A DNA stretch of 64,000 bases from Candidatus Oxydemutatoraceae bacterium (GCA_965220085.1 CBDCOZ010000003.1:1152001-1216000); one strand, 5' to 3'; shown: positions 7,179 through 61,546, numbered from the stretch's first letter. Numbers and translations are program-made. Notes: generated by a model not told the origin, from the sequence alone.

Positions 7179-7262
<84 letters not shown>

Positions 7263-7524
7263 CGATGGCCATACTGTCTCCACCCGAGACTCAGTGAAAT
7301 TGAAATCGCTGTTAAGATGCAGCGTCCCCACGGCTAGACGGAAAGACCCCGTGAACCTTTACTACAGCTTTACACTGAACTTTGGACATATCTGTGTAGG
7401 ATAGGTGGGAGGCTTTGAAGCCGAGACGTCAGTTTCGGCGGAGCCAACCTTGAAATACCACCCTGATATGCTCGGAGTTCTAACCCAGACCCGTTATCCG
7501 GGCCGGGAACAATGTATGGTGGGT

Positions 7525-7566
<42 letters not shown>

Positions 7567-7690
7567 TACAAAGGTGTCCTGAGCACGGACGGAAATCGTG
7601 CGGTCAGTATAAAGGCATAAGGACGCTTGACTGCGAGACAGACACGTCGAGCAGGTGCGAAAGCAGGTCTTAGTGATCCGGTGGTTCTGC

Positions 7691-7744
<54 letters not shown>

Positions 7745-7773
7745 ACTGCCCAAGAGTTCATATCGACGGCAGT

Positions 7774-7851
<78 letters not shown>

Positions 7852-8221
7852 TGGTACGCGAGCTGGGTTTAGAACGTCGTGAGACAGTTCGGTCCCTATC
7901 TACCGTGGGCGTTTGAGACTTGAAGGAAGCTGCTCCTAGTACGAGAGGACCGGAGTGGACGTACCTCTGGTGTTCCGGTTGTCACGCCAGTGGCATTGCC
8001 GGGTAGCTATGTATGGACAGGATAACTGCTGAAAGCATCTAAGCGGGAAGCCTGACCTGAGATGAGGTCTCACCGGGGCTTCGGCCCCCTGAAGAACCCT
8101 TGAAGAAGACGAGGTTGATAGGCTGGGTGTGGAAGCGCAGTAATGCGTGTAGCTAACCAGTACTAATTGTTCGTGAGGCTTGACCTATAACACTTAAGCA
8201 AGTTTTGGAAGCAAGTTTATG

Positions 8222-21972: not shown

Positions 21973-23820
21973 ATGAACAGATTTAATCGGTTTCGCCGCA
22001 AAGAAGCTTTCGCAGTCAGAACAGATGCCGCAGAAATGGCATCATCGCGTCCGCATCCGAGACACATAGCTAATGACGATGAACATCGTTACCCATGTTA
22101 TCCGGCCAGCTTCACCAAAGGGATGCCACACGACTATGATACCGGGCTGATTAGTAACCCTCAGGTGTTTGTAGATTTCATAAAGGCAATTGATAGCGGA
22201 GACCCAAGGGACTTTAAAGATGTCGCATTGGGTCCCAGTGGCGGAAAGTGTAAGCGCTCCTATAAGGAATGTAAGTGTCATGTTACTGAGGAATGGGAAT
22301 CTAAGATAGCGCAGTGCCTGCCTAAGTGCGAAAGGAAAGGAAAAGAGGCAAAGGTTAGGGCATGGGAAAGCCAAAGTGCTGGAAATGCCTTTGACTTGGA
22401 GGGGCCAGATGCCCAATCAGTGACTATGCCTCCGGCACCCGCTCTCGACAGTGATGAGTTAGTTGCGGAAATGGCTGAGGTTTATGCTCAGGCTCTGCTA
22501 CGGGACTATTCTTTTGAGGATATAGATAATGTTATAGGTGGTGTTGCACCCCCACCCAATCCTTGTGCAAAGGGGGACAATGTGCCACCGATTAAGGAGG
22601 TAATTGACTGCTTAAAGGATTTGGAGTTTTATAACAAGGTATCGAAATGTTGCAAGAAAGGCGCGAATAATAGGAATAGATTCAGGGGGAATACCTATGG
22701 TGATGATGTGGGGCCTTATATTTCACAATTCCTGTTAATAGGTAACACGGGCCTTAATAGGTGTGACAAAGAACCTGACAGGGACCAAGATTCTGACAGG
22801 AGTGAGGCATCGGGGCGTATCGCTTTCGGAGCCTTGGACATTGATCAACGCGTACGTGTTGCCGAACCCTGTAAAGACTATATGACGACATGGAATGAAT
22901 GGTTTGACGTTCAGCAAGGGGCGGATGTGAGAGGCCAAGAGGATTATGCTAATAAACCGCCGCGCAGATTTATTGCCACCCCACGAGACTTGGCAACCTA
23001 TGTGCATTATGACGCTCTATATCAGGCGTACTTGAATGCATGTTTAATTATGCTGGGCTCAGGAGTTCCTTTTGATCCGGGCATCCCATTTCAGGAAGAA
23101 GACTGCATTGATCACCAGCAGGGGTTTGCCCTGTTCGGCCCGCCACATATATTGACTTTGGTTACCGAAGTGGCTACTCGTGCTCTGAAAGCTGTGCGTT
23201 TCCAGAAATTTAATGTTCACCGCAGAATGCGACCGGAAGTTTTGGCAGCAAGGTTACACAATAGCGATGCAGTAGATAAAAAATTAGAACGACAATTAGA
23301 ACGAAAATCAGTAGAGAAAGTTACATTATTCGGCGATATGGCTGAGGAACCAGGACTGAAGTGTATCCTCGGATTAATCAATGGGAAGAACGGGGGTGCG
23401 CCAGGAGGAGCAAATTACCTATTGCCAATGGCCTACCCGGAAGGTTCTCCCATGCACCCGTCTTACGGTGCGGGGCATGCCACTGTGGCAGGAGCATGTG
23501 TCACCATCCTCAAAGCTTTCTTTGATACCAAGGCTGTTATACCGCAGGCATACATACCCAATCCTGCAGCTGGTTATACGACTTTAATACCAGACCCTAA
23601 AAATCCTTTGTTGACCGTTGAAGGGGAGCTTAACAAACTTGCTTCAAATATTTCCATTGGGCGCAACTGGGCAGGTGTTCACTTTTATAGTGATTACATT
23701 GAGTCAATCAGGTTGGGAGAACAAATTGCGATTGGTATCCTTGAGGAACAAAAGCTGACATACCATGAAAATTTCTCAATGACAGTTCCTCTATTTGATG
23801 GTGGCGCTATCAGGATATAA
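21973..23820 (+). CDS. Vanadium-dependent haloperoxidase, second paralog
   Basis: RFQKFNVHRRMRPE, HPSYGAGHATVAGACVT, ISIGRNWAGVHFYSD. Confidence 0.93.
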   Translation: MNRFNRFRRKEAFAVRTDAAEMASSRPHPRHIANDDEHRYPCYPASFTKGMPHDYDTGLISNPQVFVDFIKAIDSGDPRDFKDVALGPSGGKCKRSYKECKCHVTEEWESKIAQCLPKCERKGKEAKVRAWESQSAGNAFDLEGPDAQSVTMPPAPALDSDELVAEMAEVYAQALLRDYSFEDIDNVIGGVAPPPNPCAKGDNVPPIKEVIDCLKDLEFYNKVSKCCKKGANNRNRFRGNTYGDDVGPYISQFLLIGNTGLNRCDKEPDRDQDSDRSEASGRIAFGALDIDQRVRVAEPCKDYMTTWNEWFDVQQGADVRGQEDYANKPPRRFIATPRDLATYVHYDALYQAYLNACLIMLGSGVPFDPGIPFQEEDCIDHQQGFALFGPPHILTLVTEVATRALKAVRFQKFNVHRRMRPEVLAARLHNSDAVDKKLERQLERKSVEKVTLFGDMAEEPGLKCILGLINGKNGGAPGGANYLLPMAYPEGSPMHPSYGAGHATVAGACVTILKAFFDTKAVIPQAYIPNPAAGYTTLIPDPKNPLLTVEGELNKLASNISIGRNWAGVHFYSDYIESIRLGEQIAIGILEEQKLTYHENFSMTVPLFDGGAIRI

Positions 23821-26119: not shown

Positions 26120-27058
26120 ATGCTCACTTATAAAAATATCAAGAGTATTTTTCTGACATTAATCGTGTGTGCTTTGTTGGCCGGCTGTGCCAGCGAGCCC
26201 CGCTATTCACAAGCGGCGATGCAGAAACGAACCGCGACAGGCGTTGCCATAAAACCCAGCGAGACCGGGCGCGCAATGACCCCGTCTGTGGAATATATCC
26301 GCGTAAAAATGGAAAGGAGCATCTTCCTAGACCCGCCGGAAGGCAATGCGAATACCTACGTGCGTGTTCGTGACACTTCCGGACGGAACTGGGGGATCGA
26401 ATTGGAAAAAGTGGTAGCGCAAGAGCTGAACAGACGAGGGTTTAGGGCGGTAAAAGATGCCACGAACGCGGCTTATGCCATCAATGTCAATGTGCTGTTT
26501 GTGGATGAAGCATCGGCAGCTGAGATTGCCCAACTGGATGAGACGGAGTATGGCCAAAGCCTCTCCGGACTGGTTGGTTCCACCCTAGTCGGCGCCGTTG
26601 CCGGCGGCGTCGGGGGAGGGATGATCGACGACGGAGGCCTTGGCGGTGTGGCCGTAGGCACCGTAGTAGGAGCGGCCGCCGGCGGACTGGCGAATACGCT
26701 CTACAGTGACAGTCGAGACGAACTGATCAAAGCACAACAGGAAACAAAGTTCTTTTCTGTGGTAGCCGACATCGAGGTACGCGAGAGAATCAAGAGCGGC
26801 ATCATCAAGCGAACGCACAAGACTGCCCGGCAAACGAAAAAGAAAGCCGGGTCCAGCGGTGACCTTGTCGATAACAGAGATTCCGGAGGACAAACAGTAA
26901 CACAGGCGAGCACGGAAGTCGCCGAGGGGGAGACGAGCAACTGGAAGCGACACCAAACCCGAATGACCGGCAAGGCAAAAGGCAAGCTGGTTGTCTTCGA
27001 AGATGTTCAAGGTGACTTTGCCATGAAGATGGCAAGATCATTAGCGGGGTTAATCTAA
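26120..27058 (+). CDS. TraT-family (complement resistance / surface exclusion) lipoprotein
   Basis: Lipobox LAGC; KMERSIFLDP, YVRVRDTS, glycine zipper, DIEVRER, WKRHQTR, C-terminal SLAGLI follow the TraT layout. Confidence 0.75.
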   Translation: MLTYKNIKSIFLTLIVCALLAGCASEPRYSQAAMQKRTATGVAIKPSETGRAMTPSVEYIRVKMERSIFLDPPEGNANTYVRVRDTSGRNWGIELEKVVAQELNRRGFRAVKDATNAAYAINVNVLFVDEASAAEIAQLDETEYGQSLSGLVGSTLVGAVAGGVGGGMIDDGGLGGVAVGTVVGAAAGGLANTLYSDSRDELIKAQQETKFFSVVADIEVRERIKSGIIKRTHKTARQTKKKAGSSGDLVDNRDSGGQTVTQASTEVAEGETSNWKRHQTRMTGKAKGKLVVFEDVQGDFAMKMARSLAGLI

Positions 27059-34569: not shown

Positions 34570-35901
34570 ATGACTGAAACCGCAAACACAAGCCTTAACA
34601 AAAGTGATGTTGATGATATTGACAATATCATCACACTGTTTAACGAGTACGAGCAGAAGCGGGATGCGCAAAGACACCGGGGCTTGAACGACTTCAATCC
34701 ATTCACGATAGTATTAAAGGGACACTATGAAGTACAACTACACTCTCGTTTCCTGCGTCACTTGCTTGACCCGCATGCCGACCACTATCAGGGTGATTTG
34801 TTTCTGCAACTGTTTTTGGATAAATGCGGATTGCCAGATTTCTTCAATGACACCATGCGTTGCCAGACTTATAATGAATATGAATATATTGACATCTATA
34901 TCACCGATGGGAGCAAGCATCTCATCATTGAGAACAAGATATGGACAGGCGATCAACCCGACCAGCTTAAACGCTATGTGGAAGATATTGAGGAAGAGGG
35001 CGCAGGCAAAGAGAGCATAGCCGTAATATATTTATCTTTGGACAGAGATGGAAAAAAAAGATACCCGAATCTGAAGTCTGAATTTTCATCTGTTAAAGAA
35101 TTCGAATCCATTCATTATGATAAAGAAATCACCGAATGGCTGAAAGACGCCTATGAACAGGTTGCCAATATCACCAACCTGTCTCTGGGTATCCGTCAAT
35201 ATCAGGAAGTGATACAAAAATTATATGGAACCTATAGGAGGAAAGCGATGAGCTTAGAAGACTACATTACAGACAACATACCGGAAGACAAGCGAAGAGA
35301 AACAGTACAGACGATAGAGAAAATTATCCAAGAATATAACCACCGCAGACAGCCTGTAATGCAAAAATTCTTTGACGAGGTCATCAAAAGGCTGGAAGAC
35401 AAACTGAAGAGTCATCAGGAATGGGAAATGAAGTGTAATGAAGGTAATCTTAAAAACGGTAAAGGAGGGGCTCAACTAATAAGAATCCAACCAAAAGAGC
35501 CTGCAGGGGATTCTCTGATACGTTTTTCATTTGAATACGGCGAAAAAAATTTTCATAACCCCTATTGGGGCATCGTTAGCGGTGACCACAAGAAATTGAA
35601 AGAGTTACGAGAAAAGTACAAAGAAAAGCACCCTGACTCAAAGCTTTCCGAACTGCCTCATGCGGATTTGTGGATAAAAATAGAGTCAGTTTATAGCGAG
35701 GATCGCAACTGGAGAGAATATTGCGATCACTTCTCTGAGGTTATGATGAGGCTAGGTATAGAAAAAGCCGCTGAAAATTTTGTCACAAGGTTTTTTGATG
35801 AAATCATCACTGAAGACAATATGGAGTTAGTGAAAGAACTCAATGAGTTGTGGTCGGAGATAGAGAAAGGGGATAAAGGCCAAACCCCTGCGAATAACTA
35901 A
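34570..35901 (+). CDS. PD-(D/E)XK nuclease superfamily protein, copy 1
   Basis: E..LHSRFL..LLDP...H.QGDLFL..FL, IDIYI...IIENKI...DQ..QL..Y (PDDEXK_4-like). Confidence 0.85.
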   Translation: MTETANTSLNKSDVDDIDNIITLFNEYEQKRDAQRHRGLNDFNPFTIVLKGHYEVQLHSRFLRHLLDPHADHYQGDLFLQLFLDKCGLPDFFNDTMRCQTYNEYEYIDIYITDGSKHLIIENKIWTGDQPDQLKRYVEDIEEEGAGKESIAVIYLSLDRDGKKRYPNLKSEFSSVKEFESIHYDKEITEWLKDAYEQVANITNLSLGIRQYQEVIQKLYGTYRRKAMSLEDYITDNIPEDKRRETVQTIEKIIQEYNHRRQPVMQKFFDEVIKRLEDKLKSHQEWEMKCNEGNLKNGKGGAQLIRIQPKEPAGDSLIRFSFEYGEKNFHNPYWGIVSGDHKKLKELREKYKEKHPDSKLSELPHADLWIKIESVYSEDRNWREYCDHFSEVMMRLGIEKAAENFVTRFFDEIITEDNMELVKELNELWSEIEKGDKGQTPANN

Positions 35902-35942
35902 CTTCAAAATAAACCCAATGCTATCGCCTTAGAGAATGCAAG

Positions 35943-37250
35943 ATGACTGAAACCGCAAACACAAGCCTTAACAAAAGTGATGTTGATGATATTGACAATA
36001 TCATCACACTGTTTAACGAGTACGAGCAGAAGCGGGATGCGCAAAGACACCGGGGCTTGAACGACTTCAATCCATTCACGATAGTATTAAAGGGACACTA
36101 TGAAGTACAACTACACTCTCGTTTCCTGCGTCACTTGCTTGACCCGCATGCCGACCACTATCAGGGTGATTTGTTTCTGCAACTGTTTTTGGATAAATGC
36201 GGATTGCCAGATTTCTTCAATGACACCATGCGTTGCCATGCGCATAACGAATATAAACGTATTGACATCTATATCACCGATGGGAACAAGCGCCTCATCA
36301 TTGAGAACAAGATATGGGCGGGGGATCAGCCCGACCAGCTTAAACGCTATGTGGAAGAAATCGAGAAAGAGGGTGCGGGAAAAAATAGCATAGCCGTAAT
36401 GTATTTATCTTTGGATAGGGATGGAAAAGAAAGATACCCGAATCTGGAGTCTGAATTTTTATCTGTCAAAGAATTCAAATCCATTCACTACAACAAAGAA
36501 ATTACCGAATGGTTGGAAGACGCCCATAAGCAGGTTGCCAGTATTCCTAACCTGTCTCTGGGCATTCGTCAGTATCAGGAAGTGATACAAAAGTTATATG
36601 GAACCTACAGGAGGAAAGCGATGAATTTATACGACTACATTGCAGATACAGAAAATGTATCGCAGGGCAAGCGAAGAGAAACAGCACAGACGATAGAGAA
36701 AATTGTCAAAGAGTGTGACCATTGCAAACCGAATGTAATGAAAGACTTCTTTGACAAGGTTATCGCAGAGTTGAAGAAAAAACTAGAGAGCCCGGAATAT
36801 AACAATGATTGGGAAGTAGGGTGTCCTTGGGGTGAGGCCGAGCTTAAAGCTGGCAAGCGGTGGAAACGTTTAATAGTTCAACAAAAGAGTCCTGCAGAAC
36901 AGCAGCCTCCGATATATTTTGCATTTGAATACGACGCGAATAGTTACCATAACCCCGTTTGGGGCATTGCTAGAAGCAGTGACAAGATAGATTTAGAAGC
37001 TTTAACAAAAAAGTCGCGAAATACACCACAGGCAGCTTGGTGGATAGATATCCGGCCAGTTTATGAGAAAGATTACGATCATTTCTTTGAGGTTATGGCG
37101 CAAGGTGTAGAAAAAGCCGCTGAAGATTTTGTCACAAAACTTTTTAAGGAAGTCATCACTGAAGACAATATGAAATTAGTGATGAAACTCAATGAACTGT
37201 GGCTGGAGATAGAGAAAGGGGATAAAGGCCAAACCCCTGCGAATAACTAA
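35943..37250 (+). CDS. PD-(D/E)XK nuclease superfamily protein, copy 2
   Basis: Same N-terminal motifs; divergent C-terminal half. Confidence 0.85.
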   Translation: MTETANTSLNKSDVDDIDNIITLFNEYEQKRDAQRHRGLNDFNPFTIVLKGHYEVQLHSRFLRHLLDPHADHYQGDLFLQLFLDKCGLPDFFNDTMRCHAHNEYKRIDIYITDGNKRLIIENKIWAGDQPDQLKRYVEEIEKEGAGKNSIAVMYLSLDRDGKERYPNLESEFLSVKEFKSIHYNKEITEWLEDAHKQVASIPNLSLGIRQYQEVIQKLYGTYRRKAMNLYDYIADTENVSQGKRRETAQTIEKIVKECDHCKPNVMKDFFDKVIAELKKKLESPEYNNDWEVGCPWGEAELKAGKRWKRLIVQQKSPAEQQPPIYFAFEYDANSYHNPVWGIARSSDKIDLEALTKKSRNTPQAAWWIDIRPVYEKDYDHFFEVMAQGVEKAAEDFVTKLFKEVITEDNMKLVMKLNELWLEIEKGDKGQTPANN

Positions 37251-37291
37251 CTTCAAAATAAACCCAATGCTATCGCCTTAGAGAATGCAAG

Positions 37292-38632
37292 ATGACTGAA
37301 ACCGCAAACATAAACCTTAACAAAAGTGATGTTGACAACATCATCACACTGTTTAACGAGTACGAGCAGAAGCGGGATGCGCAAAGACACCGAGGCTTGA
37401 ACGACTTCAATCCATTCACGATAGTATTACATGGGCACGATGAAGTGCGTCTGCACTCCCGCTTCCTGCGTTACTTGCTTGACCCGCACGCCGACCACTA
37501 TCAGGGTGATTTGTTTCTGCAACTGTTTTTGGAGAAATGCGGATTGCAAGGTTTCTTCGATGATTCCACCCATTGCCAGACTTATAATGAATATGAACAT
37601 ATTGACATCTATATCACCGATGGGAACAAGCGCCTCATCATTGAGAACAAGATATGGGCGGGGGATCAGCCCAACCAGCTTCAAAAGCATGTGAAGAAGG
37701 TTCAAGATAAAAGTGCGGAAGGGGAGAGCACAACCGAAAAAAGTATAGTTGTAATGTATCTGTCTTTGGACAGAGATGGAAAAGAAAGATACCCGAATCT
37801 GGAGTCTGAATTTTCATCTGTTAAAGAATTAAAATCCATTCACTACAACAAAGAAATTACCGAATGGTTGGAAGAAGCCCATGAGCAGGTTGCTAATATC
37901 ACCAACCTATCTCTGGGTATTCGTCAGTATCAAGAAGTGATACAAAAGTTATATGGAACCTATGGGAGGAAAGTAATGAACTTATATGACTACATTACAG
38001 ATACAGAAAATGTATCGCAGGACAAGCGAAGAGAAACAGTACAGACGATACAGACGATAGAGAAAGTTATCCAAGAGTATAACAATTGCAAACTGGATAT
38101 AATGACAAAGTTCTTTGACAAGGTTATCGCGGGGTTAGAAGGTGAATTGGAGAGGCAGGGATGTGCTCAAGAATGGAAAGCAACATTTCATAAAGGGAAG
38201 GAAAGTGATGTTAAAGCTGGCAAGCATTATGGTCGTCGGCGTTTAATAGTCCAACAAAAAAGGAATACAGGGCATCATCCCCCGATATATTTTGCATTTG
38301 AATACAGTGCAAATGGTTATCATAACCCCGGTTGGGGCATCACCAGAAGCCGTCGAGAGGTAGATTTTGCTAAGTTAAAAAGGGCGTATGAGGCTGACCC
38401 TTGTTCTGGCATCGAGTTTCCCGCTTCTGACCCCCTTCCTGCGCATTGGTGGATAAATATTCAGTCAGTTTATGGAGAAGACTGCTATCATTTTCTTAAA
38501 ATTGTGGAATTAGGCGAAAAAGAAGCCGCTGAAAATTTTGTCACAAGGTTTTTTGCCAAAGTCATCACTAAAGAGAATATGAAGTTAGTGATGAAACTCA
38601 ATGAACTGTGGCCGAAGGTGGAGAAGAGCTAG
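37292..38632 (+). CDS. PD-(D/E)XK nuclease superfamily protein, copy 3
   Basis: Same N-terminal motifs; divergent C-terminal half. Confidence 0.85.
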   Translation: MTETANINLNKSDVDNIITLFNEYEQKRDAQRHRGLNDFNPFTIVLHGHDEVRLHSRFLRYLLDPHADHYQGDLFLQLFLEKCGLQGFFDDSTHCQTYNEYEHIDIYITDGNKRLIIENKIWAGDQPNQLQKHVKKVQDKSAEGESTTEKSIVVMYLSLDRDGKERYPNLESEFSSVKELKSIHYNKEITEWLEEAHEQVANITNLSLGIRQYQEVIQKLYGTYGRKVMNLYDYITDTENVSQDKRRETVQTIQTIEKVIQEYNNCKLDIMTKFFDKVIAGLEGELERQGCAQEWKATFHKGKESDVKAGKHYGRRRLIVQQKRNTGHHPPIYFAFEYSANGYHNPGWGITRSRREVDFAKLKRAYEADPCSGIEFPASDPLPAHWWINIQSVYGEDCYHFLKIVELGEKEAAENFVTRFFAKVITKENMKLVMKLNELWPKVEKS

Positions 38633-50424: not shown

Positions 50425-50475
50425 AAAAGACATCGATCAAAAAATTAAAGAAGCACAGAAAATATTACAAGAGAG
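50414..50475 (+). pseudogene. 5' remnant of the cognate restriction endonuclease
   Basis: Overlaps the MTase end; KIKEAQKIL resembles BsuBI/PstI-family N-termini; sequence switches abruptly to the 3' flank of the convergent gene. Confidence 0.5.
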
Positions 50476-50486
50476 TGTCGCGCGCG

Positions 50487-51540
50487 CTATCGCAACGGGC
50501 CTTCAAGGAAGAGGCGCAAGCGCAAGCGCACAGGCACATGGTCCTCTGTCACCTGAGCGCCTATGCTACACAGCGGCCCTTCCGATGCGGGCGCGGAAAA
50601 CTGATCCTTGAAAGAAACGCAGGCGCGTACGTACTTGTCCACATCGGCCGGGAAGGGCGCGAAGTTCGAGGCAGTGACAGCGGTTGCCGCAACGCCCGCT
50701 ATGTCAGCATAGGCATCGGCTGCGGGAGCGCCATTGGCGGGCGCATCGGCCTGTTGCCACTGCCAACTCAGGGTGTCGACATTGATGCCGTTGTTCTCCG
50801 TCACACCGGCGATGGAAGCTCTGATCATGCCCGTGGCGGTGGTGACTGTGGGTGCGCCGCTGGCGGCCATCTGCGTGGATGCGCTCACCAGGTTGATGGT
50901 CATGATGGCGGAACTTCTATCAGACTGAAATATAAAAGTAAAGTCGGTATAGCCAGTGGCGATGGAAATAGCATCGGCAGGCGGGGCGTATCTGAAACGA
51001 AGATGATTCCCAGGGGGATTAGCGAAATCAAATGTGCCAAAGAAGGCAGTCTGTTCATGCAAACCCACATTGTCAGCAAGATCCCCGCCATCCCCTCTGG
51101 TCAAGGTGCCGCGATCAGGATAGGTTTCAAAGTACAGCGAGGTGTCCTGGGGGAAGCCGGGGAAGTCGGCCAATACGAAAAGGTGGCTGCCGCCAAGGGG
51201 GACATTAACGCTGCTGTCTTGGGCGGTTTGAGCGTTCGCCTGGGTTGCGCCCAATGTCAAAGACAATGCCAGCAGGCAACGCATGGCGCATCCGACCACG
51301 GTGCGGCCGGCGCCTGCCGCCCGCGCGAACGACGGGCGGACCACAACAGACCGCAACCGCAACAACAATCCGCGCACAGCCGGTGCGCACGGTCGCTTTG
51401 CGGATGGCGGGTTGCGATATGCGAGTGATAAAAAACGAGTGAGAAGGCGATACAGCGAAACGCCGACAATCCCCTTACCTACAAGGCTAGGGGGAGGGGG
51501 GGGGGGGGGGGGGGGTAGTGTTAAAAATTTGTCGATTCAT
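50487..51540 (-). CDS. Secreted Ig/cadherin-like protein with C-terminal RLRLRLFLEGPLR; frameshifted at a C20 tract
   Basis: AGGAGG SD and ATG at 51540; poly-C at 51515-51496; the downstream frame is open from the tract to the stop at 50487. Confidence 0.7.
51490..51515. repeat. Homopolymer G5-A-G20
   Basis: Read directly from the sequence. Confidence 0.95.
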
Positions 51541-52018
51541 ATCTAATCCTCCTATGACAAGTAAACGCGATAGTCTAACCATTGCCGGCACTATCACAAA
51601 TGTAAGCCATCCTATGGCACGTAAATGTGGTTGGGTAATCATTGTCGGCACTATATCACAAACATAAGCCATCCGCAAGTGCCTTTGGATTCTAGCCTCA
51701 CCCCTTTCCGGCTCAGGGTATTTGCACTATATATAGGCTGGCTACGAGGATGGTGTGCTATGCCGATGCGGGGTATTTACACTATATATATAGAGGATAT
51801 GGCGGCATTGCGACCCTCGCCGCTATTGCCATGCGAAAACAGCGACTAAACACCGCTGTTTACAACAGTTTCCGCTGTTGCCGGACAGAGCCAAGTACAT
51901 AAGCCCCGATATTCCCCGATATTTCATGACCGCTCAAGTTGTGTTAGTATGGCATTCTGTGTAGAATAAGCAATGCATGATTATCTGCATTGCAAAAAAG
52001 ATTAAGGATTAAACGGTT

Positions 52019-52137
52019 TGCCTGGCGGCTATAGAGCACTGGTACCACCCGATCCCATTCCGAACTCGGAAGTGAAACGGTGCATCGCCGATGGTAGTGT
52101 GGGGTCTCCCCATGCGAGAGTAGGACACTGCCAGGCG
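52019..52137 (+). rRNA. rrf: 5S ribosomal RNA, unlinked from 23S
   Basis: TGCCTGGCGGC...CCCATTCCGAACTCGGAAGTGAAACG...GCCGATGGTAGTGTGGGGTCTCCCCATGCGAGAGTAGG..ACTGCCAGGC. Confidence 0.98.
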
Positions 52138-52177
52138 TTTATTCCGCTTCCCGTTGTTATTTCCCGGTACTACCGCC

Positions 52178-52924
52178 ATGGGCTTTGATATTGAAACTTT
52201 TCTCGTCGCAGGCACCGCTGTCACGGGCTTGTTGCTCGTCATCGCGCGCTTCGCGAATACCGCCCGCCCGCGCTGGTTGTTTGATACGGCGCAGTCGTTT
52301 TTCCCCGTACTGGCGATTGTTCTGATTCTGCGCAGTTTCATCATTGAGCCGTTTAGAATCCCCTCGGGCTCCATGTTGCCGACATTGGAAATCGGCGATT
52401 TCATCGTTGTCAATAAGTTTTCCTACGGCGTAAAACTGCCGCTGCTACATTGGCAGTTGCTAGAAGTCGGCGCGCCGCAACGCGGGGATGTGGTCGTCTT
52501 CCGTTATCCGCACGACCCATCGCAGGATTACATCAAGCGCCTGATCGGCTTGCCGGGCGATCACATCGTCTATAAAGACAAACAACTGACTATCAACGGC
52601 AGAAAAATCGCGGCGGACGATGCTCGCCCGTATCCGCAGCCCGAGACCTATCCGCTGATCATGGAGCGTCGCAGCGAACAGTTGGAAGGCGCCGCTCACG
52701 ATATTCTCTTGACACCGGCGCGCCGGCAGCACGACGGGGAGTGGACGGTACCCGCGGACTCCTACTTCGTGATGGGAGACAATCGCGACAACAGCAACGA
52801 CAGCCGCGTTTGGGGGTTTGTCGCCAAGGAGCATTTGGCCGGCAAGGCATTTTTGATTTGGATGAGTTGGGACTACGATGAAAACAACATCAAGTTCCCC
52901 CGCATATGGACGAGTATCCGCTGA
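52178..52924 (+). CDS. lepB: Signal peptidase I
   Basis: RSFIIEPFRIPSGSMLPTL, DYIKRLIGLPGD, GDNRDNSNDSR. Confidence 0.96.
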   Translation: MGFDIETFLVAGTAVTGLLLVIARFANTARPRWLFDTAQSFFPVLAIVLILRSFIIEPFRIPSGSMLPTLEIGDFIVVNKFSYGVKLPLLHWQLLEVGAPQRGDVVVFRYPHDPSQDYIKRLIGLPGDHIVYKDKQLTINGRKIAADDARPYPQPETYPLIMERRSEQLEGAAHDILLTPARRQHDGEWTVPADSYFVMGDNRDNSNDSRVWGFVAKEHLAGKAFLIWMSWDYDENNIKFPRIWTSIR

Positions 52925-53583
52925 TGCCCGACTTAAAAGACTTGCTCCCGGCGGAGTTTTTTAAGACCCCCCAATTCAATACGGCGATTACCCACCAGAG
53001 CGCGGGTTTTCCTAACAACGAACGGATGGAATTTCTGGGCGATGCCGTATTGCAGCTTGCCATCAGCGAAACGCTCTACCTCTCGAGCGCAAAAGACGAA
53101 GGGTATCTGACAAAGTTTCGCGCCTATCTGGTATGCAAGGACACGCTGTCCGAGTTGGCGCAGGAATGTCGGCTGGGCGATCTGATCAAGCTCGGCCCCG
53201 GCGAGAACCGAGACAACATCACGAAATCTATTCTGGGCAATGCGTTTGAAGCGATTATTGCCGCGGTGTATCTGGCGCACGGTTGGGATACGGTGCGAGG
53301 ATTTATCGAGACGGTTTATGCGAGCCGTCTGGAGCACATGCCGACCTTGGAAAAACTCAAGGATGCCAAAACAAGATTGCAGGAGTATTTGCAATCGCTG
53401 GGACACGCCTTGCCGGTCTATGCGCTGACAAAGAGCGGCCCCGGCAACGCGCCTGTGTTTGAGGCGCGGTGCAGCATCGACGAGTTGGATGTCGTGACCC
53501 GCGGGCGCGGAGCGACCAGACGCGCCGCCGAGCAGGAAGCGGCTGTCCGCGCGCTGGAGTTGTTGCAAGCCGGACTGTCGTGA
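52924..53583 (+). CDS. rnc: Ribonuclease III
   Basis: NERMEFLGDAVL, FEAIIAA, DAKTRLQE dsRBD. Confidence 0.96.
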   Translation: MPDLKDLLPAEFFKTPQFNTAITHQSAGFPNNERMEFLGDAVLQLAISETLYLSSAKDEGYLTKFRAYLVCKDTLSELAQECRLGDLIKLGPGENRDNITKSILGNAFEAIIAAVYLAHGWDTVRGFIETVYASRLEHMPTLEKLKDAKTRLQEYLQSLGHALPVYALTKSGPGNAPVFEARCSIDELDVVTRGRGATRRAAEQEAAVRALELLQAGLS

Positions 53584-54431
53584 GCGCGAAGCAACAATGC
53601 GGAAGCGTGGCCATCATCGGCGCTCCCAACGCCGGCAAATCCACATTATTTAACCGCTTGATCGGACGGCATCTGTCGGCTGTGACGCACAAGCCGCAGA
53701 CGACCCGTCGCAATATCAGAGGGGCGCTGACCGAAGGGGCGGCGCAGATGATCTTTATTGATACGCCGGGCATCCACAAAGGGCGGGCGGGCGCGCTCAA
53801 TCGCGCGCTCAATCGCAACGCAAAAAGCGTCCTCTACGATGTCGATGTCATCATCCTGATCGCCTCGTGCCGGCGCTGGACGCGACAGGATCAGGACATA
53901 CACGACTTGATTGCCGATATTCCGGCGCCGTGCCTGCTAGCGCTCAATAAGATCGACCTGCTTGCGGACAAATCCGAGATGTTGCCGCTGATAAAACAGA
54001 TGGACGAGCGCAACCGCTTTGATGCGATTATTCCGATTTCGGTTTTGCGCAACAAAGCGATTGCCGCGCTGAAACAGGAGATCGTATCTCGCCTGCCGCA
54101 ACGGCCGTTTCTGTTCGGCGACGATACGATCAGCGACCAGAGCGATGAGGTGATCATCGTTGAATTGATTCGCGAGAAACTGATGCAATACTCTCACGGC
54201 GAGTTGCCGTATATAACCGATATCCGAGTGGAATCCATTGAGCAAAAGGGGCCGCGGCGCAATATCACCGTGAACATTCTGGCTGACAAACCCGGGCGCA
54301 GAGCGATATTGATTGGCGCCGGCGGCTCCAAATTGAAACTGATCGGTTCCACCGCCCGCAAACGGATAGAGCAGGCGCTCGGCGCCCGCACATACCTCGA
54401 CTTGCGGGTGAAAGACAAGAAGACCGCATGA
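53580..54431 (+). CDS. era: GTPase Era
   Basis: GAPNAGKSTL, KPQTTR, DTPG, NKID, ELPY, KH domain; GTG start overlaps the rnc stop. Confidence 0.95.
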   Translation: MSAKQQCGSVAIIGAPNAGKSTLFNRLIGRHLSAVTHKPQTTRRNIRGALTEGAAQMIFIDTPGIHKGRAGALNRALNRNAKSVLYDVDVIILIASCRRWTRQDQDIHDLIADIPAPCLLALNKIDLLADKSEMLPLIKQMDERNRFDAIIPISVLRNKAIAALKQEIVSRLPQRPFLFGDDTISDQSDEVIIVELIREKLMQYSHGELPYITDIRVESIEQKGPRRNITVNILADKPGRRAILIGAGGSKLKLIGSTARKRIEQALGARTYLDLRVKDKKTA

Positions 54432-54437
54432 GAGCAG

Positions 54438-55169
54438 ATGATTGCTTTTCAAGACGAACCGGCCTTTGTCATTCATAAACGCGCCTATAACGACCGCAGC
54501 GATCTGGTGCAAATTTTAACGCCCGGACACGGGCGGCTGACCGTGATTGCCCGCTCGTCCGTGAAGATGATCGGCAAAGTGCTGCAACCGTTTATCCCGG
54601 CCAATGTCAGTTGCGGCGGCAGAGGGGAGATACCGAGCTTGCGCCAGTTTGAGCCCGAAGGCGCACAGATACTGACCGCTGCCGAACAGCGTATCGTCGG
54701 CATGTATGTGAATGAGTTGCTGACCAAGTTGACGCCTTTTCGCAGCGCATCCCGCACTTTGTTTCATTTGTATTCCCGTTGCATAACCGCTATCGGCGGC
54801 ATGTCCGACATGCGCGCCGACCTCGCCGCAGTGGAAAAGATACTGCGGAACTTTGAAGCGGATTTGCTTGAGTTGGTCGGCAACGGTTTGCAGTTGCAAT
54901 ACGAAAGCGGCGGCATGCAAGCGCTACAACCCGACGCATATTACCGCTACGATATTGACCGCGGAGCGGTGCGAGCGGGCGGCGGTGATGCGAGCGAATT
55001 CGTATACACCGGCGCGGCTCTGATTGCGCTGCGCGAACGTCTCACAACCTGCGATCGCCCGTTGATGACCGAAGCAAAGCAACTGTTGCGGCAGGTCATC
55101 GACTGCCACCTCAACGGCAAAGCGATAGAGACCCGCGCCCTGTTTTCGTATTTGCAAAACCTGACTTGA
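54438..55169 (+). CDS. recO: DNA repair protein RecO
   Basis: AFVIHKRAY, LQPF, GMYVNELL, LRNFE..LL; gene order. Confidence 0.92.
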   Translation: MIAFQDEPAFVIHKRAYNDRSDLVQILTPGHGRLTVIARSSVKMIGKVLQPFIPANVSCGGRGEIPSLRQFEPEGAQILTAAEQRIVGMYVNELLTKLTPFRSASRTLFHLYSRCITAIGGMSDMRADLAAVEKILRNFEADLLELVGNGLQLQYESGGMQALQPDAYYRYDIDRGAVRAGGGDASEFVYTGAALIALRERLTTCDRPLMTEAKQLLRQVIDCHLNGKAIETRALFSYLQNLT

Positions 55170-55227
55170 AAGCGGGGGGCGATTAGCAGTACTATGGGTA
55201 ACTTCGCCGTAATATGACCGGATAAAC

Positions 55228-55959
55228 ATGGTTCAAACGCACATCAATGCCGCTTTATGGGTCAATATCGACCACGTCGCGACCTTGCGCGAGGCGCGCA
55301 AGACGCCATACCCCGACCTCGCCGAGGCAATCGCGCAAGCCGAAGCCGGCGGCGCTTCCGGCATCACGATGCACTTGCGCGAAGACCGCAGGCATGTGCG
55401 CGATGACGATGTGCGCATGGCGCGGGAGCGAGTGACGACAGCGCTGAATCTTGAGATGGCGGCAACCGATGAGATGGTCGCCATCGCGGTTGCGACAAGG
55501 CCGGATGAGTGTTGCATCGTGCCGGAGAAACGCGAGGAATTGACGACCGAAGGCGGTTTGAATGTCCGCGCACAGTTGGCGCAAATCAGCGATGCGTGTC
55601 GCGCATTGAAGGCCGCCGCAATCAAGGTATCGCTGTTCGTAGAAGCCGATCGGCGAACGCTGGATGATGCGGCGGCGGTCGGGGCGGACATCGTTGAGCT
55701 GCACACCGGCCAATACGCGCTCTGCGAGGGCGAAGCGCAACAAGCCTGTTTGCGGCGGATAGCGGATGCCGCCGAATATGCCGCCGGGCTCGGTTTGCAA
55801 GTCAATGCCGGGCACGGCTTGCGGCGTGAAAATGTCGCCCCGATTGCCGCCATCACACAGATGACGGCGCTAAACATCGGTCACGCTGTCATCGCCGATG
55901 CCGTGTTCATGGGATTGCGCGAGGCGACCGCGGCGATGTATCGGGCGATGCAAGCATGA
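55228..55959 (+). CDS. pdxJ: Pyridoxine 5'-phosphate synthase
   Basis: VNIDHVATLREAR, HLREDRRH, PEKREELTTEGGL, NAGHGL. Confidence 0.97.
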   Translation: MVQTHINAALWVNIDHVATLREARKTPYPDLAEAIAQAEAGGASGITMHLREDRRHVRDDDVRMARERVTTALNLEMAATDEMVAIAVATRPDECCIVPEKREELTTEGGLNVRAQLAQISDACRALKAAAIKVSLFVEADRRTLDDAAAVGADIVELHTGQYALCEGEAQQACLRRIADAAEYAAGLGLQVNAGHGLRRENVAPIAAITQMTALNIGHAVIADAVFMGLREATAAMYRAMQA

Positions 55960-56315
55960 TACACGGTATCGGCATAGACATCGTGGATGTTCGCCGCATC
56001 GTCAGGTTGTTGCGACTCTATCCGTTGCGTTTTCCGCGTCGCATCTTACACCCGACAGAGCTGTTGACATACCAGCAGAAGCGCGACAAGGCCGGCTATC
56101 TCGCGCGCCAATTTGCCGCCAAAGAGGCGATCAGCAAGGCATTAGGGTGCGGTTTTCGCAACGGCTGCTATGCCGGCACGATGATAGTGGAGCGCGATGC
56201 GGCGGGACGTCCGGTTGCCAGCGTACCGGCGGCGGGCGCCGATATAGAGCTCAAAGTCAGCATCTCCGGCGAGAAAGATTATGTGGTGGCTCAAGCGCTT
56301 GCGCTCAGAACCTAA
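55956..56315 (+). CDS. acpS: Holo-ACP synthase
   Basis: GIGIDIV, FAAKEAISKALG. Confidence 0.95.
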   Translation: MIHGIGIDIVDVRRIVRLLRLYPLRFPRRILHPTELLTYQQKRDKAGYLARQFAAKEAISKALGCGFRNGCYAGTMIVERDAAGRPVASVPAAGADIELKVSISGEKDYVVAQALALRT

Positions 56316-56319
56316 TCCA

Positions 56320-57495
56320 TACCATTACCCGCGCTCGCGCTTCAATTCCGCCTTCAGCGCGCAGAGTTGCTCCAGCGCTTCCTTCGGGCTCAGGCGGTCG
56401 GGGTCCAGTTGCTCCAGCGCCTGTTGCAACCCGCCATCGGTTTGCGGACGGGCGGACTCGGTGTCGTATCATGACCCGCGCTCGCGCTTCAATTCCGCCT
56501 TCAGCGCATAGAGTTGCTCCAGCGCTTCCTTCGGGCTCAGGCGGTCGGGGTCCAGTTGCTCCAGCGCCTGTTGCAACCCGCTATCGGTTTGCGGCCGGTC
56601 GGGCTCGGTGTCGTATCATGACCCGCGTTCGCGCTTCAATTCCGCCTTCAGCGCGCAGAGTTGCTCCAGCGCTTCCTTCGGGCTCAGGCGGTCGGGGTCC
56701 AGTTGCTCCAGCGCCTGTTGCAACCCGCTATCGGTTTGCGGACGGGCGGACTCGGTGTCGTATCATGACCCGCGCTCGCGCTTCAATTCCGCCTTCAGCG
56801 CATAGAGTTGCTCCAGCGCTTCCTTCGGGCTCAGGCGGTCGGGGTCCAGTTGCTCCAGCGCCTGTTGCAACCCGCTATCGGTTTGCGGCCGGTCGGGCTC
56901 GGTGTCGTATCATGACCCGCGTTCGCGCTTCAATTCCGCCTTCAGCGCGCAGAGTTGCTCCAGCGCTTCCTTCGGGCTCAGGCGGTCGGGGTCCAGTTGC
57001 TCCAGCGCCTGTTGCAACCCGCTATCGGTTTGCGGACGGGCGGACTCGGTGTCGTATCATGACCCGCGCTCGCGCTTCAATTCCGCCTTCAGCGCGCAGA
57101 GTTGCTCCAGCGCTTCCTTCGGGCTCAGGCGGTCGGGGTCCAGTTGCTCCAGCGCCTGTTGCAACCCGCTATCGGTTTGCGGCCGGTCGGGCTCGGTGTC
57201 GTATCATGACCCGCGCTCGCGCTTCAATTCCGCCTTCAGCGCATAGAGTTGCTCCAGCGCTTCCTTCGGGCTCAGGCGGTCGGGGTCCAGTTGCTCCAGC
57301 GCCTGTTGCAACCCGCTATCGGTTTGCGGCCGGTCGGGCTCGGTGTCGTATCATGACCCGCGCTCGCGCTTCAATTCCGCCTTCAGCGCATAGAGTTGCT
57401 CCAGCGCTTCCTTCGGGCTCAAGCGGTCGGGGTCCAGTTGCTCCAGCGCCTGTTGCAACCCGCTATCGGTTTGCGGCCGGTCGGGCTCGGTGTCG
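56320..57495 (-). repeat. 147-bp tandem repeat x8 of the mutS 3' end
   Basis: Units start at 56320, 56467, 56614, 56761, 56908, 57055, 57202 and 57349; the last is the real gene end. Confidence 0.97.
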
Positions 57496-59924
57496 GCTTT
57501 GAGGCTAAGGCCGAGTTGGGGTGTCTCATCGCTGCCATCATTGCGGGCCGCCTCCAGCGAATGCAATTTATCTTGCGCCTGTGCGATGACACTTTCCGGC
57601 ACCCCGGCCAGGCGGGCGACTTGTAAGCCGTAACTCTTGCTGGCCGGGCCGGGTTTGACTTTGTACAGGAAAACAATTTTTTCCTTGTGCTCGGTGACAT
57701 CGATATGCACATTGCTGATAGTCGGGAACTGTTCGTGCAACGTCGTCAACTCAAAGTAGTGGGTTGCAAACAATGTATAGGAATGATTGTGCTGCGCAAT
57801 GTGGGCGGCACAAGCCCACGCCAGACTCAGCCCGTCAAAGGTACTCGTGCCGCGCCCGATCTCGTCCAGCAACACCAGGCTTTTGTCGGTCGCGTTGTTG
57901 AGGATGTTGGCGACCTCCGTCATTTCCACCATAAAGGTGGAGCGCCCGGATGCGATGTCATCGGACGCCCCGATGCGGGTGAAGATGCGGTCTACCGGAC
58001 CGATGCGAGCCGCTTCGGCGGGCACCCAGGCGCCGATGTGCGCAAGCAATACGATCAGCGCGGTCTGGCGCATATACGTCGACTTGCCGCCCATGTTCGG
58101 GCCGGTGATGATGCGTATGCGACCCTTGTCGCTCAGCGTCAGGTCGTTGGGGACAAAAGGCTGGTCGGAAATGTTCTCTATGATCGGGTGGCGGCCGTTT
58201 TTGATTTCAATCATCGGCTCGGCGGCGAATTGCGGCCTGCTGTGGTCGTAGAGTTTGGCGCAGTGGGCGAGGGTCGCCAGCACATCCAACTCCGCCAGCG
58301 CGCCAGCGCAAGCATAGAGTTTCTGCAGATACGGTTTGAACTCTTCGAGCAACTTTTGATACAGCGCCTTCTCGCGCGCCAACGCGCGCGTCTGCGCGGT
58401 CAGCACCTTGGCCTCGTAATCTTTCAACTCGGCGATGGTGAAGCGCTCGACATTCTTCAGGGTCTGCGTGCGCATATAATCGGCCGGCACTTTCTGCGCC
58501 GACGCTTTGCCGACCTCAATATAAAAGCCGTGCACTTTGCTGTAAGAAAGTTTGAGCGAGTGGATGCCGCTGCGCCGCTGTTCCCGTTGCTCGAGTTCCA
58601 GCAGGTAGCGGTTGGCGCCGTCGTTCATGCTGCGCAACTCATCCAACTGCGCGTCAAAGCCCGCTTTCAATACGCCGCCGTCGCGGATCGTCACCGGAGG
58701 CTCGTCGATGATGGCTTTGTCCAGCAACGCCAGCAACTCGGGTTGTTCGGCGACGGTCTGACGAAGACTTTTAAGCAACGCGCTTGTCGTTGTCTTCAAC
58801 GCGGATTTGATCTGCGGCAGCAGGCGCAAACTTTCGCGTATGCCGATGATGTCGCGCGGACGCGCGTGCAACATGGCGATGCGCGATGTGATGCGCTCAA
58901 TATCGGCGACCGACCCAAGCGATGCGCGCAAGGTCTCGCGACCGGCTTCGTCCGTCAGCCAAGCGATGGCATCCTGCCGCGCGATGATGCGGGCATGGTC
59001 TTTCAAAGGTTGGTTGAACCAGCGCTTAAGACAACGCCCGCCCATCGCCGAACTGACATGGTCGTAGATCGCAAACAAGGTGTGTTCCCGATTCCCCGAT
59101 ATGGATTGATCGATTTCCAAACAGACCCGGCTGACCGAGTCTATCTCCAGATATTCGCCGCCGGATTCCACCGTCAGTTTTCGCAGATGGGGCACCGCGC
59201 TGCGCTGCGTCTCTTTGGCATAGGAGAGCAGGGCGCCGGCGGCGGAGATGGCCGAATCCATATGTTCGCAACCGAAACCCGACAGGTCGCGGGTTCGCAT
59301 CTGCTCGCATAATTTGCGCCGACACGTATCCGCCTCAAAGTGCCACGCAGGGTAGGCGCGACCGTCAATCGGCAGCGTGCCTTCCTGTTCCTCGCTGATC
59401 AATATTTCCGCCGGGCGCAACCGTTGCACTTCGTCCATGACTTCGCTGTCGCTGTCGCACTGGCGCAGGCTGAAGATACCGGCGCTCAGTTCCAGCGCCG
59501 CAATCCCATAGCGGTGGGTGTCGTGCTGGCGAAAGACGGCCATCAGATAATTGTCGCTTTTGGCTTGCAGCAAAGTCTCCTCGGTCAAAGTGCCGGGGGT
59601 GACGATGCGGGTGATTTTACGCTCCAACGGACCCTTGCCCGCCTTGGGGTCGCCGACTTGGTCGCATATCACGACCGACTCGCCGTAGCGGATTAACTTG
59701 GCGATGTAGGAGTCCATCGCGTGCACCGGTATGCCGGCCATCGGAATCGGTTTGCTATTGGCTTGGCCGCGCGAGGTCAGCGTCAGATCGAGCAGGCGCG
59801 AAGCTTTTTCCGCATCAGAATAAAAGAGTTCATAGAAATCGCCCAATTGATAGAACAGCAACAAATCGGGATACTCTGACTTAAACGCCAGATACTGTTG
59901 CATCGCTGGTGTCGGTTTGTTCAT
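57351..59924 (-). CDS. mutS: DNA mismatch repair protein MutS
   Basis: [51 protein letters not shown]. Confidence 0.98.
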
Positions 59925-60264
59925 TATCAATCAATCGAGGTAAAGGGTAGTAATACGATCTCCTGGTTTCAGGCTAACTCGCATTTTAGCAAACTCGCCA
60001 TATTCCCCCTTTTTGCCCGCGCTTGTGAGGGCAGGCCAGCGGGATATTTTGTATCATCCGGGCATTGCCACAGAGGAAAGCGCCGCCGAATCATGCCGCA
60101 AACACCCCAAATTTCAGGCATCATACAGGGGGGGTGCAAATATCTTATCTGTGGTATAATCACTGGTCGTTAGGATGTGTTTGAACCCTCATGAGGTTCT
60201 GCTATGGCAAAAAGACGGCGCACATCCCCACGCTTTGCAACTAAGATGAAGAGGAAAATACCAC

Positions 60265-61546
60265 ATGCAGTTTTCACCGGAACCACAGGATGCCCTGACA
60301 ACGTACGATTATATTAATACCCCCCCCCTTGTACGAGAGGCATCCGGTGGCGCGGCTTAGCCTCTGGTCGCTCGCTCTGCTCGCCCTGATTGCAATCTGC
60401 GCTCAGGCACAGGCGCAGACCGCACCCGTCGCTGGGGACAACACCATAGAGGTGTACGTCACCGCAACCGCCGACAATCCCTACGTCTTCGAGAAGAACG
60501 ATTTTCCCTTTGAGGATGACGACAAGCACGCCTTTGCCAGGGTGGATCTGGGCAGTGTGCCCACCGTCGGCACCCTGAGGACGGGCGCTGTCGCCTCAGC
60601 GATGGGGCATCAATTTTATGCGAATCCCACCGGCAGTCAGAGCGGGTTTTCCGACCTTACCTACTACCCGGCGCCGGGGCAGAGCCCGACCGAGGGCTAC
60701 GCCAGTTTCACATTCGGCGTACGCGATTCCTCCGGTGCGCTCAGCCATGCTCTTGCCACCATCACCATAGATCTGGTGCGGGCGCCGCAACTGCCGGCAA
60801 CCGGCGCGCCCGCGGTCACGGCGCCCATGGGCAGCACAGCCTGGCACGAGGATGTGACCCTGACGGCATCCATCGGCACTGTCAGAGATGCCAATGGCAT
60901 TAGCACCGACACCATAGCATGGCAATGGGAACATGCCGCCGCTCCCGCCAGCGGCATCCCGGCCACCAGCGCATACGCCGCCATAGCCGGGGCCGACGAC
61001 GACACATTCACGCCCCTGCAGGATCATGTGGGCGACTATGTGCGGGTATGCGTCTCTTTCATGGACAACTTCATGGTGCCCGGCGACGAGCGGCGATGCA
61101 CCGCGGGCAATGTCATCGTCAATGTCAATGATGCGCCCGCCAGCGCCGATGCCTTTGTCAATGTGCCGATTACCGCAACCGCCGATATGCCGTTCTACTT
61201 TAGCGCCGGGCATTTTGCGTTCATGGATGAGGATGTCGGCGACAATGCGGACTTTGAAAGCGTCAGCATAAGCCTCCCCGGCAGGAGCAACATTGCCGGC
61301 ACATTGCGCCTCGGCGCCGAGCCGGGGTTTGCAAGAGGCACCGCGACCAGCGTTAACTTTGACGACATAGCCACGCTCAACTTTTATCCGAACACGGACC
61401 AGCAGGCTACCACCGCCTATTCCACATTCTCATTTGCCGTGTACGATGGCGCGACGTACAGCGAAATCCACACCATGACCATCAACCTGGTGCCTGCCGA
61501 CATACGCTTGCGGCTGCGCCTCTTCCTGGAAGGCCCGTTGCGATAG
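60265..61546 (+). CDS. Secreted Ig/cadherin-like protein with C-terminal RLRLRLFLEGPLR; frameshifted at a C9 tract
   Basis: GAGGA SD and ATG at 60265; C9 at 60320-60328; main frame 60329-61546 has a signal peptide and VNVNDAP; paralogous to the 50487 gene. Confidence 0.7.

Follow-up and report, generated by a model that had tools for sequence, protein, structure and literature searches.

What does a short peptide do that closes two secreted proteins and lies just after the signal peptide of a third? The question is raised by a 64,000-nucleotide stretch of DNA from a Candidatus Oxydemutatoraceae bacterium, hereafter the window, which is C3:1152001-1216000 of genome G000 (2.49 Mb, 99% complete, three contigs). 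An earlier note on this DNA had read the peptide, here called the tag, as a portable strand that docks different cargo domains onto a common partner and that spread by recombination at the tag DNA. We retain the portable docking strand and its common partner, and abandon the recombination. In the account developed here, the tag matches by homology the opening beta-strand of a domain; the rest of that domain has its own gene, which encodes an exported protein, the catcher, and the catcher would in turn hold tagged proteins on a surface scaffold.

The two proteins with terminal tags, P0001 and P0002 (Table 1), are paralogs, as first described, matching at 36% over 247 residues with the tags removed (E 1.6e-25), and each ends in RLRLRLFLEGPLR followed at once by a stop codon. 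The PPC-repeat protein P0003 is tagged as well, and its comparison with P0001 stays below significance (best E 0.63); its tag lies about 23 residues downstream of the likely signal cleavage site. P0001 matches no Pfam or NCBIfam family. The DNA likeness that continues past the stop in both terminal copies is real, and most likely is the trace of a recent duplication. While the paired termini hold up, the starts assigned to the two genes do not: those at 51377 on the minus strand and 60329 on the plus strand are probably not the main ones, because an upstream ATG and a poly-C tract are found in both genes, leaving the open reading frames (ORFs) out of frame in this assembly. A homolog search with P0002 returned 56 proteins, 52 of them ascribed to G000 and four on short European Nucleotide Archive contigs that end without a tag.

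The motif is far from confined to these three genes. A six-frame scan of G000 for FL[EQ][GD][PAS][LV][RQ] returned 222 matches, against one for the reversed motif and 0, 0, 0, 0 and 1 for five hexamer shuffles. Of these matches 217 stand directly before a stop codon (TAG 136, TAA 53, TGA 28), three just after a signal peptide, and two read on. Of the terminal tags, 188 close frames that run to 100 codons or more (the longest 15,193), the other 29 being short orphans; a heuristic gene set of 1,795 genes includes 182 with the tag, which cover 19% of G000. A Pfam scan of 34 tag peptides found nothing relevant. Over 12 codon positions in the 217 copies, silent sites vary freely (pS 0.385) and replacement sites hardly at all (pN 0.019; pN/pS about 0.05), and 118 identical tag peptides are encoded by 101 different DNA strings. 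The constraint acts on the tag as a peptide, which is under strong purifying selection. Downstream of the stop, about six nucleotides are conserved in G000, at 0.6-1.0 bit per base; among 105 tag copies from relatives this conservation is weak and its consensus letters differ. Spread by recombination at the tag DNA is therefore unsupported, and the free silent variation, together with such short and relative-specific conservation past the stop, points to recent duplication rather than to a recombination site.

Tagged proteins bear the marks of export. By a simple heuristic, a signal-peptide-like start is present in 173 of 188 tagged frames and in 455 of 1,170 untagged genes of G000. None of the 188 tagged ORFs has a C-terminal membrane or hydrophobic stretch, and P0001 and P0002 match no NCBIfam model, which agrees with the earlier statement that the tag is not GlyGly-CTERM. 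The autotransporter barrel (PF03797) likewise gave no match in G000 (control detected in 3 of 14), and because neither a C-terminal membrane stretch nor a barrel was found, the cargo would need an anchor from outside. Sizes range from 116 to more than 15,000 residues. Twenty cargo proteins were picked for diversity, five of them being scanned over the final 3,000 residues; Pfam domains were matched in 13 (cadherin, fn3, Ig-like, Calx-beta, subtilase, PPC) and in none of the other seven. The segments adjoining the tag form 17 groups, and 184 of 188 cargo ORFs are linked through common modules; the cargo is a mosaic rather than a set of entirely unrelated proteins.

Cargo genes are further set apart by homopolymers. 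Runs of at least eight C near the 5' end occur in 83 of 188 tagged genes and in 5 of 1,613 other genes of G000, typically a few codons past an ATG that mostly has a Shine-Dalgarno-like site. Taking the best ATG for each of the 83 tracts, 20 are in frame with the cargo, 56 are out of frame and seven have no candidate ATG, a share in frame near the one in three expected from random tract lengths. These patterns suggest that slippage in poly-C switches cargo genes on and off. Tract lengths are known from the assembly, long homopolymers are sites of assembly error as well, and contigs break at the C20 tract. The contingency genes opa and pilC of Neisseria are phase-variable and have repeats where the signal peptide is encoded, and the tracts described here resemble those repeats in lying a few codons past the start and in leaving most copies out of frame. 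They differ in number: an uncultured, symbiont-type bacterium with a genome of 2.5 Mb would have 83 such loci, and switching is here proposed from sequence. Phase variation of pilC is mentioned in PMC13533445.

The origin of the tag was traced through a domain that begins VKVFLEGPY; the same letters also end one protein of genome G006. In 400 Pseudomonadota genomes, a pattern of this type gave six matches, none with the domain. A metagenome scan gave 29 loci, and in most of these the motif opens a module of about 215 residues, usually C-terminal, with a conserved DW, an HRNH and two dockerin-like loops. A profile was made from the 24 loci with more than 120 residues past the motif, the first strand being removed before searching. 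This strandless profile of intact environmental domains found one ORF of G000 at E 2.8e-27, the next scoring 0.17, and that ORF is the catcher. Its mature chain begins where the strand ends: the conserved Met that in intact modules sits a few residues past the first strand comes, in the catcher, directly after the signal peptide (profile-profile E 1.7e-45). By sequence homology, then, the tag is to be read as the first beta-strand of a widespread, uncatalogued module of about 215 residues ending in dockerin-like loops; in a predicted structure of the intact module, residues 3-10 form a strand. The catcher accounts, by homology and complementary boundaries, for the common partner expected in the earlier note, and the two would bind one another. 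The doubt raised there, that the tag might be just the terminal strand of a described domain folding within its own chain, does not apply as worded, for the tag is a first strand and the remainder of its domain is a separate gene. The tag thus does not form the closing strand of a domain belonging to the cargo, while it does derive from an existing domain that folds intramolecularly in other bacteria and in genome G001.

Dockerin_1 matched five of eight intact domains, two above the cut-off, and the best match of the module profile to solved dockerins had E 0.0006. In the ESM Atlas, the nearest clusters are unnamed proteins of 215-253 residues, one cluster with Dockerin_1 in 19% of its members. 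In quick trees, catchers lie on one side and intact modules on the other with support of only 94, and a grouping of G001 with the catchers is not rejected (p-value of the approximately unbiased test, 0.43). In G009 the tag of that genome's own genus and a short linker have been re-fused to a catcher, which nests among catchers with support of 100. Alignment A3 retains one catcher row, L332, trimmed at the wrong end.

Immediately downstream of the catcher is the gene for the scaffold, whose tail is tripartite and GlyGly-CTERM-like as judged by eye, and directly after it comes a rhombosortase gene (TIGR03902, 96 bits against a cut-off of 84). A choice-of-anchor U match on the scaffold falls just below cut-off (30.3 against 32). 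A gsp-like cluster, delimited by eye at C3:452100-466032, ends 3 kb upstream of the catcher; GspD scores 428 against a cut-off of 351 and a GspK-like protein 107, below its cut-off of 130, and profile PF03934 did not pick the GspK gene of G000. Of 25 catcher loci displayed, those of G000 and its relatives, every one has a gene for a long signal-peptide protein next in line, and four have a tagged gene directly upstream of the catcher. A GlyGly-like tail directly upstream of rhombosortase was found in 9 of 18 genomes. Since a regular expression for such tails overlooked two such proteins in the window, we do not claim the scaffold as the sole substrate of rhombosortase.

The N-terminal domain of the scaffold was folded together with 21 homologous stretches (mean identity 20%). 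The resulting model, with a predicted local distance difference test score (pLDDT) of 71, gave its best Foldseek matches to cohesins (E 3.7e-6); in VIA the top 20 rows were all cohesin entries (Z 12.2, root-mean-square deviation 3.0 over 140 residues). On this modelling, the N-terminal domain of the scaffold has the cohesin fold. A profile search found a single cohesin-like domain of this type in G000; as a lone query, the domain returned G000 and one weak match, nothing else.

Table 1. Features of the catcher locus and of the window. Positions preceded by C3 are those of the contig of G000; all others are counted from the first letter of the window.
Feature	Position	Strand	Size	Remarks
Catcher	C3:469169-470137		322 residues	Signal peptide, then module minus its first strand
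Scaffold	C3:470148-474257		1,369 residues	Starts ten bases past catcher; signal peptide; tail with Gly run, hydrophobic stretch and basic residues
Exported protein P0001	50487-51377	-	296 residues from GTG	Tag at C-terminus; Ig/cadherin-like modules by homology to paralogs
Tag RLRLRLFLEGPLR of P0001, proposed donor strand	50490-50528	-		Stop 50487-50489
Stop codon and short DNA common to both terminal copies	50475-50489	-		
Poly-C tract of P0001 gene	51496-51515	-	C20 on coding strand	Eight codons past upstream ATG; out of frame
Shine-Dalgarno-like AGGAGGA and ATG (51540) of P0001 gene	51538-51553	-		Probable main start
Exported protein P0002	60329-61546	+	405 residues from TTG	Paralog of P0001; tag at C-terminus
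Tag RLRLRLFLEGPLR of P0002	61505-61543	+		Stop 61544-61546
Upstream ATG (60265) and C9 tract (60320-60328) of P0002 gene	60265-60328	+		Out of frame with P0002 ORF
PPC-repeat exported protein P0003	19425-21515	+	696 residues	Tag near mature N-terminus; Pfam PPC E 8e-35
Internal tag RLRLRVFLEGPLR of P0003	19548-19586	+		Gly/Ser linker comes next; G000 has three such N-terminal tags in all

The idea that the tag is limited to G000 was considered and proved false. A strict pattern ending in Arg found, among 41 genomes, G000 alone; looser patterns and a tag profile found variants in relatives. In 400 sampled genomes of the class, the loose pattern gave 0-2 matches per genome, like the control, save in one member of the family. 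Within the order it picked out all five genomes of group g3 (17-48 matches) and four of five of group g4 (6-27), counts that include a few chance matches, and the tag profile added groups g2, g5 and g6, with such variants as RIRVFLEGAVIP, RLRVKVYLGGAVR and VNVKVFLEGPYEYR. Free tags thus occur in 17 of 19 family genomes, all but G001 and G008; those of G004 and G013 are weakly scoring (E 2.3, 0.13 and 0.35) and were judged by eye at ORF ends. Against a collection of species genomes, the variant pattern returned 100 stretches, of which the 80 listed all come from Candidatus Oxydemutatoraceae, Candidatus Porisulfidus or uncultured Chromatiales; these bacteria are presumably sponge symbionts. The intact-domain profile matches in 17 of 19 family genomes and in none of 34 others of the order.

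The two family genomes without a free tag differ from each other. In G008 (97% complete, one contig) there is neither tag nor catcher. In G001 the intact-domain profile gives 25 matches, in ORFs of 687-17,496 residues, whose first aligned model position lies in the range 3-10, so that the strand is covered; in no other genome does a match start before position 18. The 16 modules inspected in G001 all have the strand in cis; 15 are C-terminal and one comes right after the signal peptide, mirroring the placement of the tag in P0003. G001 (for example at C1:838839-839534) encodes at least 25 such proteins, and no cohesin-like gene was found with the profile used.

These observations can be assembled as follows. 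A parent module, normally intact at the ends of secreted proteins, would have been cut after its first strand in this family, the strand being kept on each cargo protein as a tag of 13-15 residues and the remainder becoming the separate, Sec-exported catcher. Cargo and catcher, both with signal peptides, would cross the inner membrane via Sec; the tag would then insert into the catcher and complete its beta-sandwich, as their homology and complementary boundaries suggest. The dockerin-like end of the catcher may bind the predicted cohesin-fold domain of the scaffold, whose GlyGly-CTERM-like tail would be processed by the adjacent rhombosortase, with the neighbouring type II secretion system carrying it to the surface, as in the Vibrio precedent. 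Finally, slippage in the observed poly-C tracts by the start codon would select the active genes among about 190 cargo genes. As catcher and cohesin are single, the two would serve the entire repertoire, with one cargo per scaffold molecule. We regard the pairing of tag and catcher, Sec export of both included, as highly probable from the sequences. That strand complementation docks cargo on the catcher, and that dockerin-cohesin binding holds it on a surface-anchored scaffold, we put at a probability of roughly 0.7. We also lean, with less assurance, towards the full picture of a sorting signal read by the completion of a fold, rather than by an enzyme or translocon, through which some 190 frameshift-switched adhesins and enzymes would plug by either end into one cohesin scaffold.

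A number of results weigh against this arrangement. The set of intact modules was chosen by the VKVFLEGPY pattern, which makes the match of tag to domain itself circular; a reverse test with a strandless catcher profile, run for that reason, speaks for the arrangement and matched 15,224 cluster representatives. Of the best 150, the strand is in cis in 106, another 36 consist of a strandless catcher behind a signal peptide and eight are fragments, classes assigned by regular expression with 11 rows corrected by hand. The catcher of G000 has no Pfam match, Dockerin_1 included, and no NCBIfam match; its first dockerin-like loop is broken by an insertion, the second being kept. The model of the intact module is modest (pLDDT 66) and its fold matches weak (best Z 5.9). 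Cohesin identity depends on a single predicted model, and sequence matches to a cohesin family were found for none of 22 scaffold domains. The GlyGly_CTERM model TIGR03501 does not match the scaffold tail. The parts do not always travel together: in G014 (85% complete, 230 contigs) no catcher was found beside the tags and the cohesin-like matches, G008 has a cohesin-like match with neither catcher nor tag, and the 25 intact modules of G001 are accompanied by no match to the cohesin profile. The 19 family genomes are kin, not independent cases, and a secretin would have to pass proteins of up to 15,193 residues.

The strongest competing explanation, which we consider unlikely, is that the catcher does bind the tag, but only in passing, acting in the periplasm as a chaperone or export adaptor that delivers cargo to type II secretion, whereupon the cargo is released or held otherwise; the cohesin-like protein would have a separate role. 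The position of the catcher cassette in G000, adjoining gspN and rhombosortase, would suit an adaptor, as would a single catcher gene for some 190 cargo genes, the degenerate first calcium loop, and intact modules in G001 with no cohesin detected. Against it, the cohesin-like gene follows the catcher in 25 of 25 displayed loci, the second dockerin-like loop is retained, intact homologs are permanent portions of their proteins, and in g4, g5 and g6 the cassette lies away from the rhombosortase gene. Two other kinds of catcher locus were seen. L345 (G009 C1:652198-655890), between a free catcher and a second scaffold, encodes a protein of 650 residues that is cohesin-like at its N-terminus and ends in a tag fused to a catcher, possibly a chain-extending adaptor. 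L327 and L329 (G006 and G010) have three divergent catcher genes in tandem ahead of one scaffold, which suggests that these catchers differ in preference for tag or cohesin.

It is quite improbable that the tag is instead a PilY1-like terminal strand that completes the minor pilin PilX, so that cargo would sit on the tips of type IV pili. Such a mechanism is shown for PilC/PilY1 in PMC13533445, and the family has a fimT-pilV-pilW-pilX-pilE cluster lacking pilY1, with two tagged genes inside the cluster of G000; Pfam T4P_PilY1 (PF05567) matched in 0 of 19 genomes, where the control was equally silent. The extreme C-terminus described in that source is deeply buried, whereas the present tag also stands N-terminally (three cases in G000) and ahead of C-terminal extensions of up to 13 residues (in relatives). 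Moreover, PilW homologs of the cluster are present in G001 and G008, which lack free tags, the PilX sequences extend beyond their usual end as if supplying their own strand (by eye), and the strandless catcher would be left unaccounted for. The C-terminal beta-propeller of PilC/PilY1 was seen in none of 20 scanned cargo proteins. In the minor-pilin cluster itself (G000 C3:156133-162793, or L111:8634-15294), both tagged genes are inserted between pilV and pilW along with a degenerate copy of the tag; the cluster also has the end of pilE in four short repeats.

No better placed is the view of the tag DNA as a recombination or cassette boundary, its peptide a by-product. Several features of G000 are of the kind it predicts: the six or so nucleotides conserved past the stop, a last Arg codon that is CGA or CGG in 213 of 217 tags against 70 of 158 other genes ending in Arg, 120 of 219 distances between neighbouring tags below 3 kb, 12 of the 29 short orphans within 400 nucleotides of another tag, and the sharing of modules among nearly all cargo ORFs. 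The contrast between pS and pN and the use of all three stop codons speak against it, relatives retain the peptide with other codons and no common downstream DNA, and duplication with gene conversion accounts for the local likeness. At C3:513720-514230 and C3:909000-909480, tandem duplications of 156-174 nucleotides, comprising only a tag and its flanks, yield orphan tags; similar short terminal duplications occur at many untagged genes. Least credible of all is that the tag is a functionless stump of a once-truncated domain, copied along with genes while the catcher acts alone: simple truncation could put a stop just past the first strand, and G008 lacks both tag and catcher, yet the peptide is under strong purifying selection, is kept across six genera on unrelated cargo and can be N-terminal, and the catcher, with its own signal peptide, begins at the complementary point.

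Other features of the window stand apart from the tagged genes. Two paralogous proteins of about 620 residues with HPSYGAGH motifs (14012-15916 and 21973-23820, plus strand; one with a weak PAP2 match, E 0.005), presumably vanadium haloperoxidases, flank the PPC-repeat genes. A PPC-domain protein (15979-17079, plus) and a trypsin-like protein (8929-10551, plus) both have GlyGly-CTERM-like tails, so PPC cargo in the window would have two anchors, the direct tail and the tag. Three tandem PD-(D/E)XK nuclease paralogs of 435-446 residues (Pfam PDDEXK_4) lie at 34570-38632 (plus), and a TraT-family lipoprotein-like gene (Pfam TraT E 1.7e-30) at 26120-27058 (plus). An adenine methyltransferase-like gene in two ORFs, both below cut-off for TIGR02987, adjoins the end of the P0001 gene (48847-50424, plus). 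An Rfam scan of the window matched rRNA alone, with the 23S (5060-8187) and 5S (52021-52136) genes in an unlinked arrangement about 44 kb apart.

Each part of the proposed arrangement has precedents, in strand addition, cohesin-dockerin binding and rhombosortase, and we found their combination in no paper. Neither the tag motif nor a split dockerin module is described in the literature searched, subscription journals lying outside its coverage. One of the closest likenesses is to clostridial type II cohesin/XDoc anchoring (CipA/ScaA and SdbA-type anchors), in which a beta-sandwich with dockerin-like loops ends secreted proteins and a cohesin-fold domain sits on a cell-anchored scaffold. Structures of this system (PDB 4u3s, 5g5d, 3kcp and 2b59) are among the entries matched by model or profile; for the intact-module model, XDoc chains come up at Z 5.1-5.3 and E above 0.05, tied with other transthyretin/CnaB-like sandwiches, so that the likeness to the X-module is weak (Z about 5). 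Here, in contrast, the module would be split, with a 13-residue strand on the cargo and one shared catcher supplying the remainder. A dockerin in cis on cargo is absent from G000, whose lone stand-alone catcher matches the module, and present in the intact copies of G001. Compared with the clostridial cellulosome, the host is Gram-negative, the anchor of the rhombosortase type, the cargo adhesin-like rather than cellulases, and each scaffold has one cohesin. In chaperone-usher donor-strand complementation and in the engineered SpyTag/SpyCatcher pair, a second chain donates the strand that an incomplete beta-sandwich lacks, as is proposed here; the present system is natural, has no polymer and no usher, and gave no evidence for a covalent isopeptide link.

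Two further systems bear comparison. In PilC/PilY1 and MshQ, a C-terminal beta-strand is added to PilK/PilX minor pilins (PMC13533445). A large adhesin exported by Sec is thereby kept on the cell through a short strand at its end, which completes the sheet of the partner in trans, and fusions of strand and partner occur there too. Differences are that no evidence of a pilin partner was found here, the strand is not confined to the extreme C-terminus, and it is common to about 190 cargo proteins. VesB of Vibrio reaches its place on the surface through rhombosortase and type II secretion (PMC6219818), and the present locus resembles that system in having rhombosortase directly after a Gly-rich, hydrophobic, basic-tailed protein near a secretion cluster. 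Unlike GlyGly-CTERM, the tag has no hydrophobic segment; the signal-like tail is on the scaffold.

If the proposed arrangement is true, surface display in Gram-negative bacteria would gain a further mode, with just one strand of a split domain serving as the sorting signal. Small-genome, host-associated bacteria would have a testable route to surface variation, and control could be exerted at one point, the catcher gene. More than 15,000 protein clusters contain the uncatalogued parent domain, which would gain its first functional lead, as an anchor that binds cohesin, and nature would offer, in a 13-residue tag that works at either terminus and binds a soluble partner, a parallel to the engineered tag/catcher tools.

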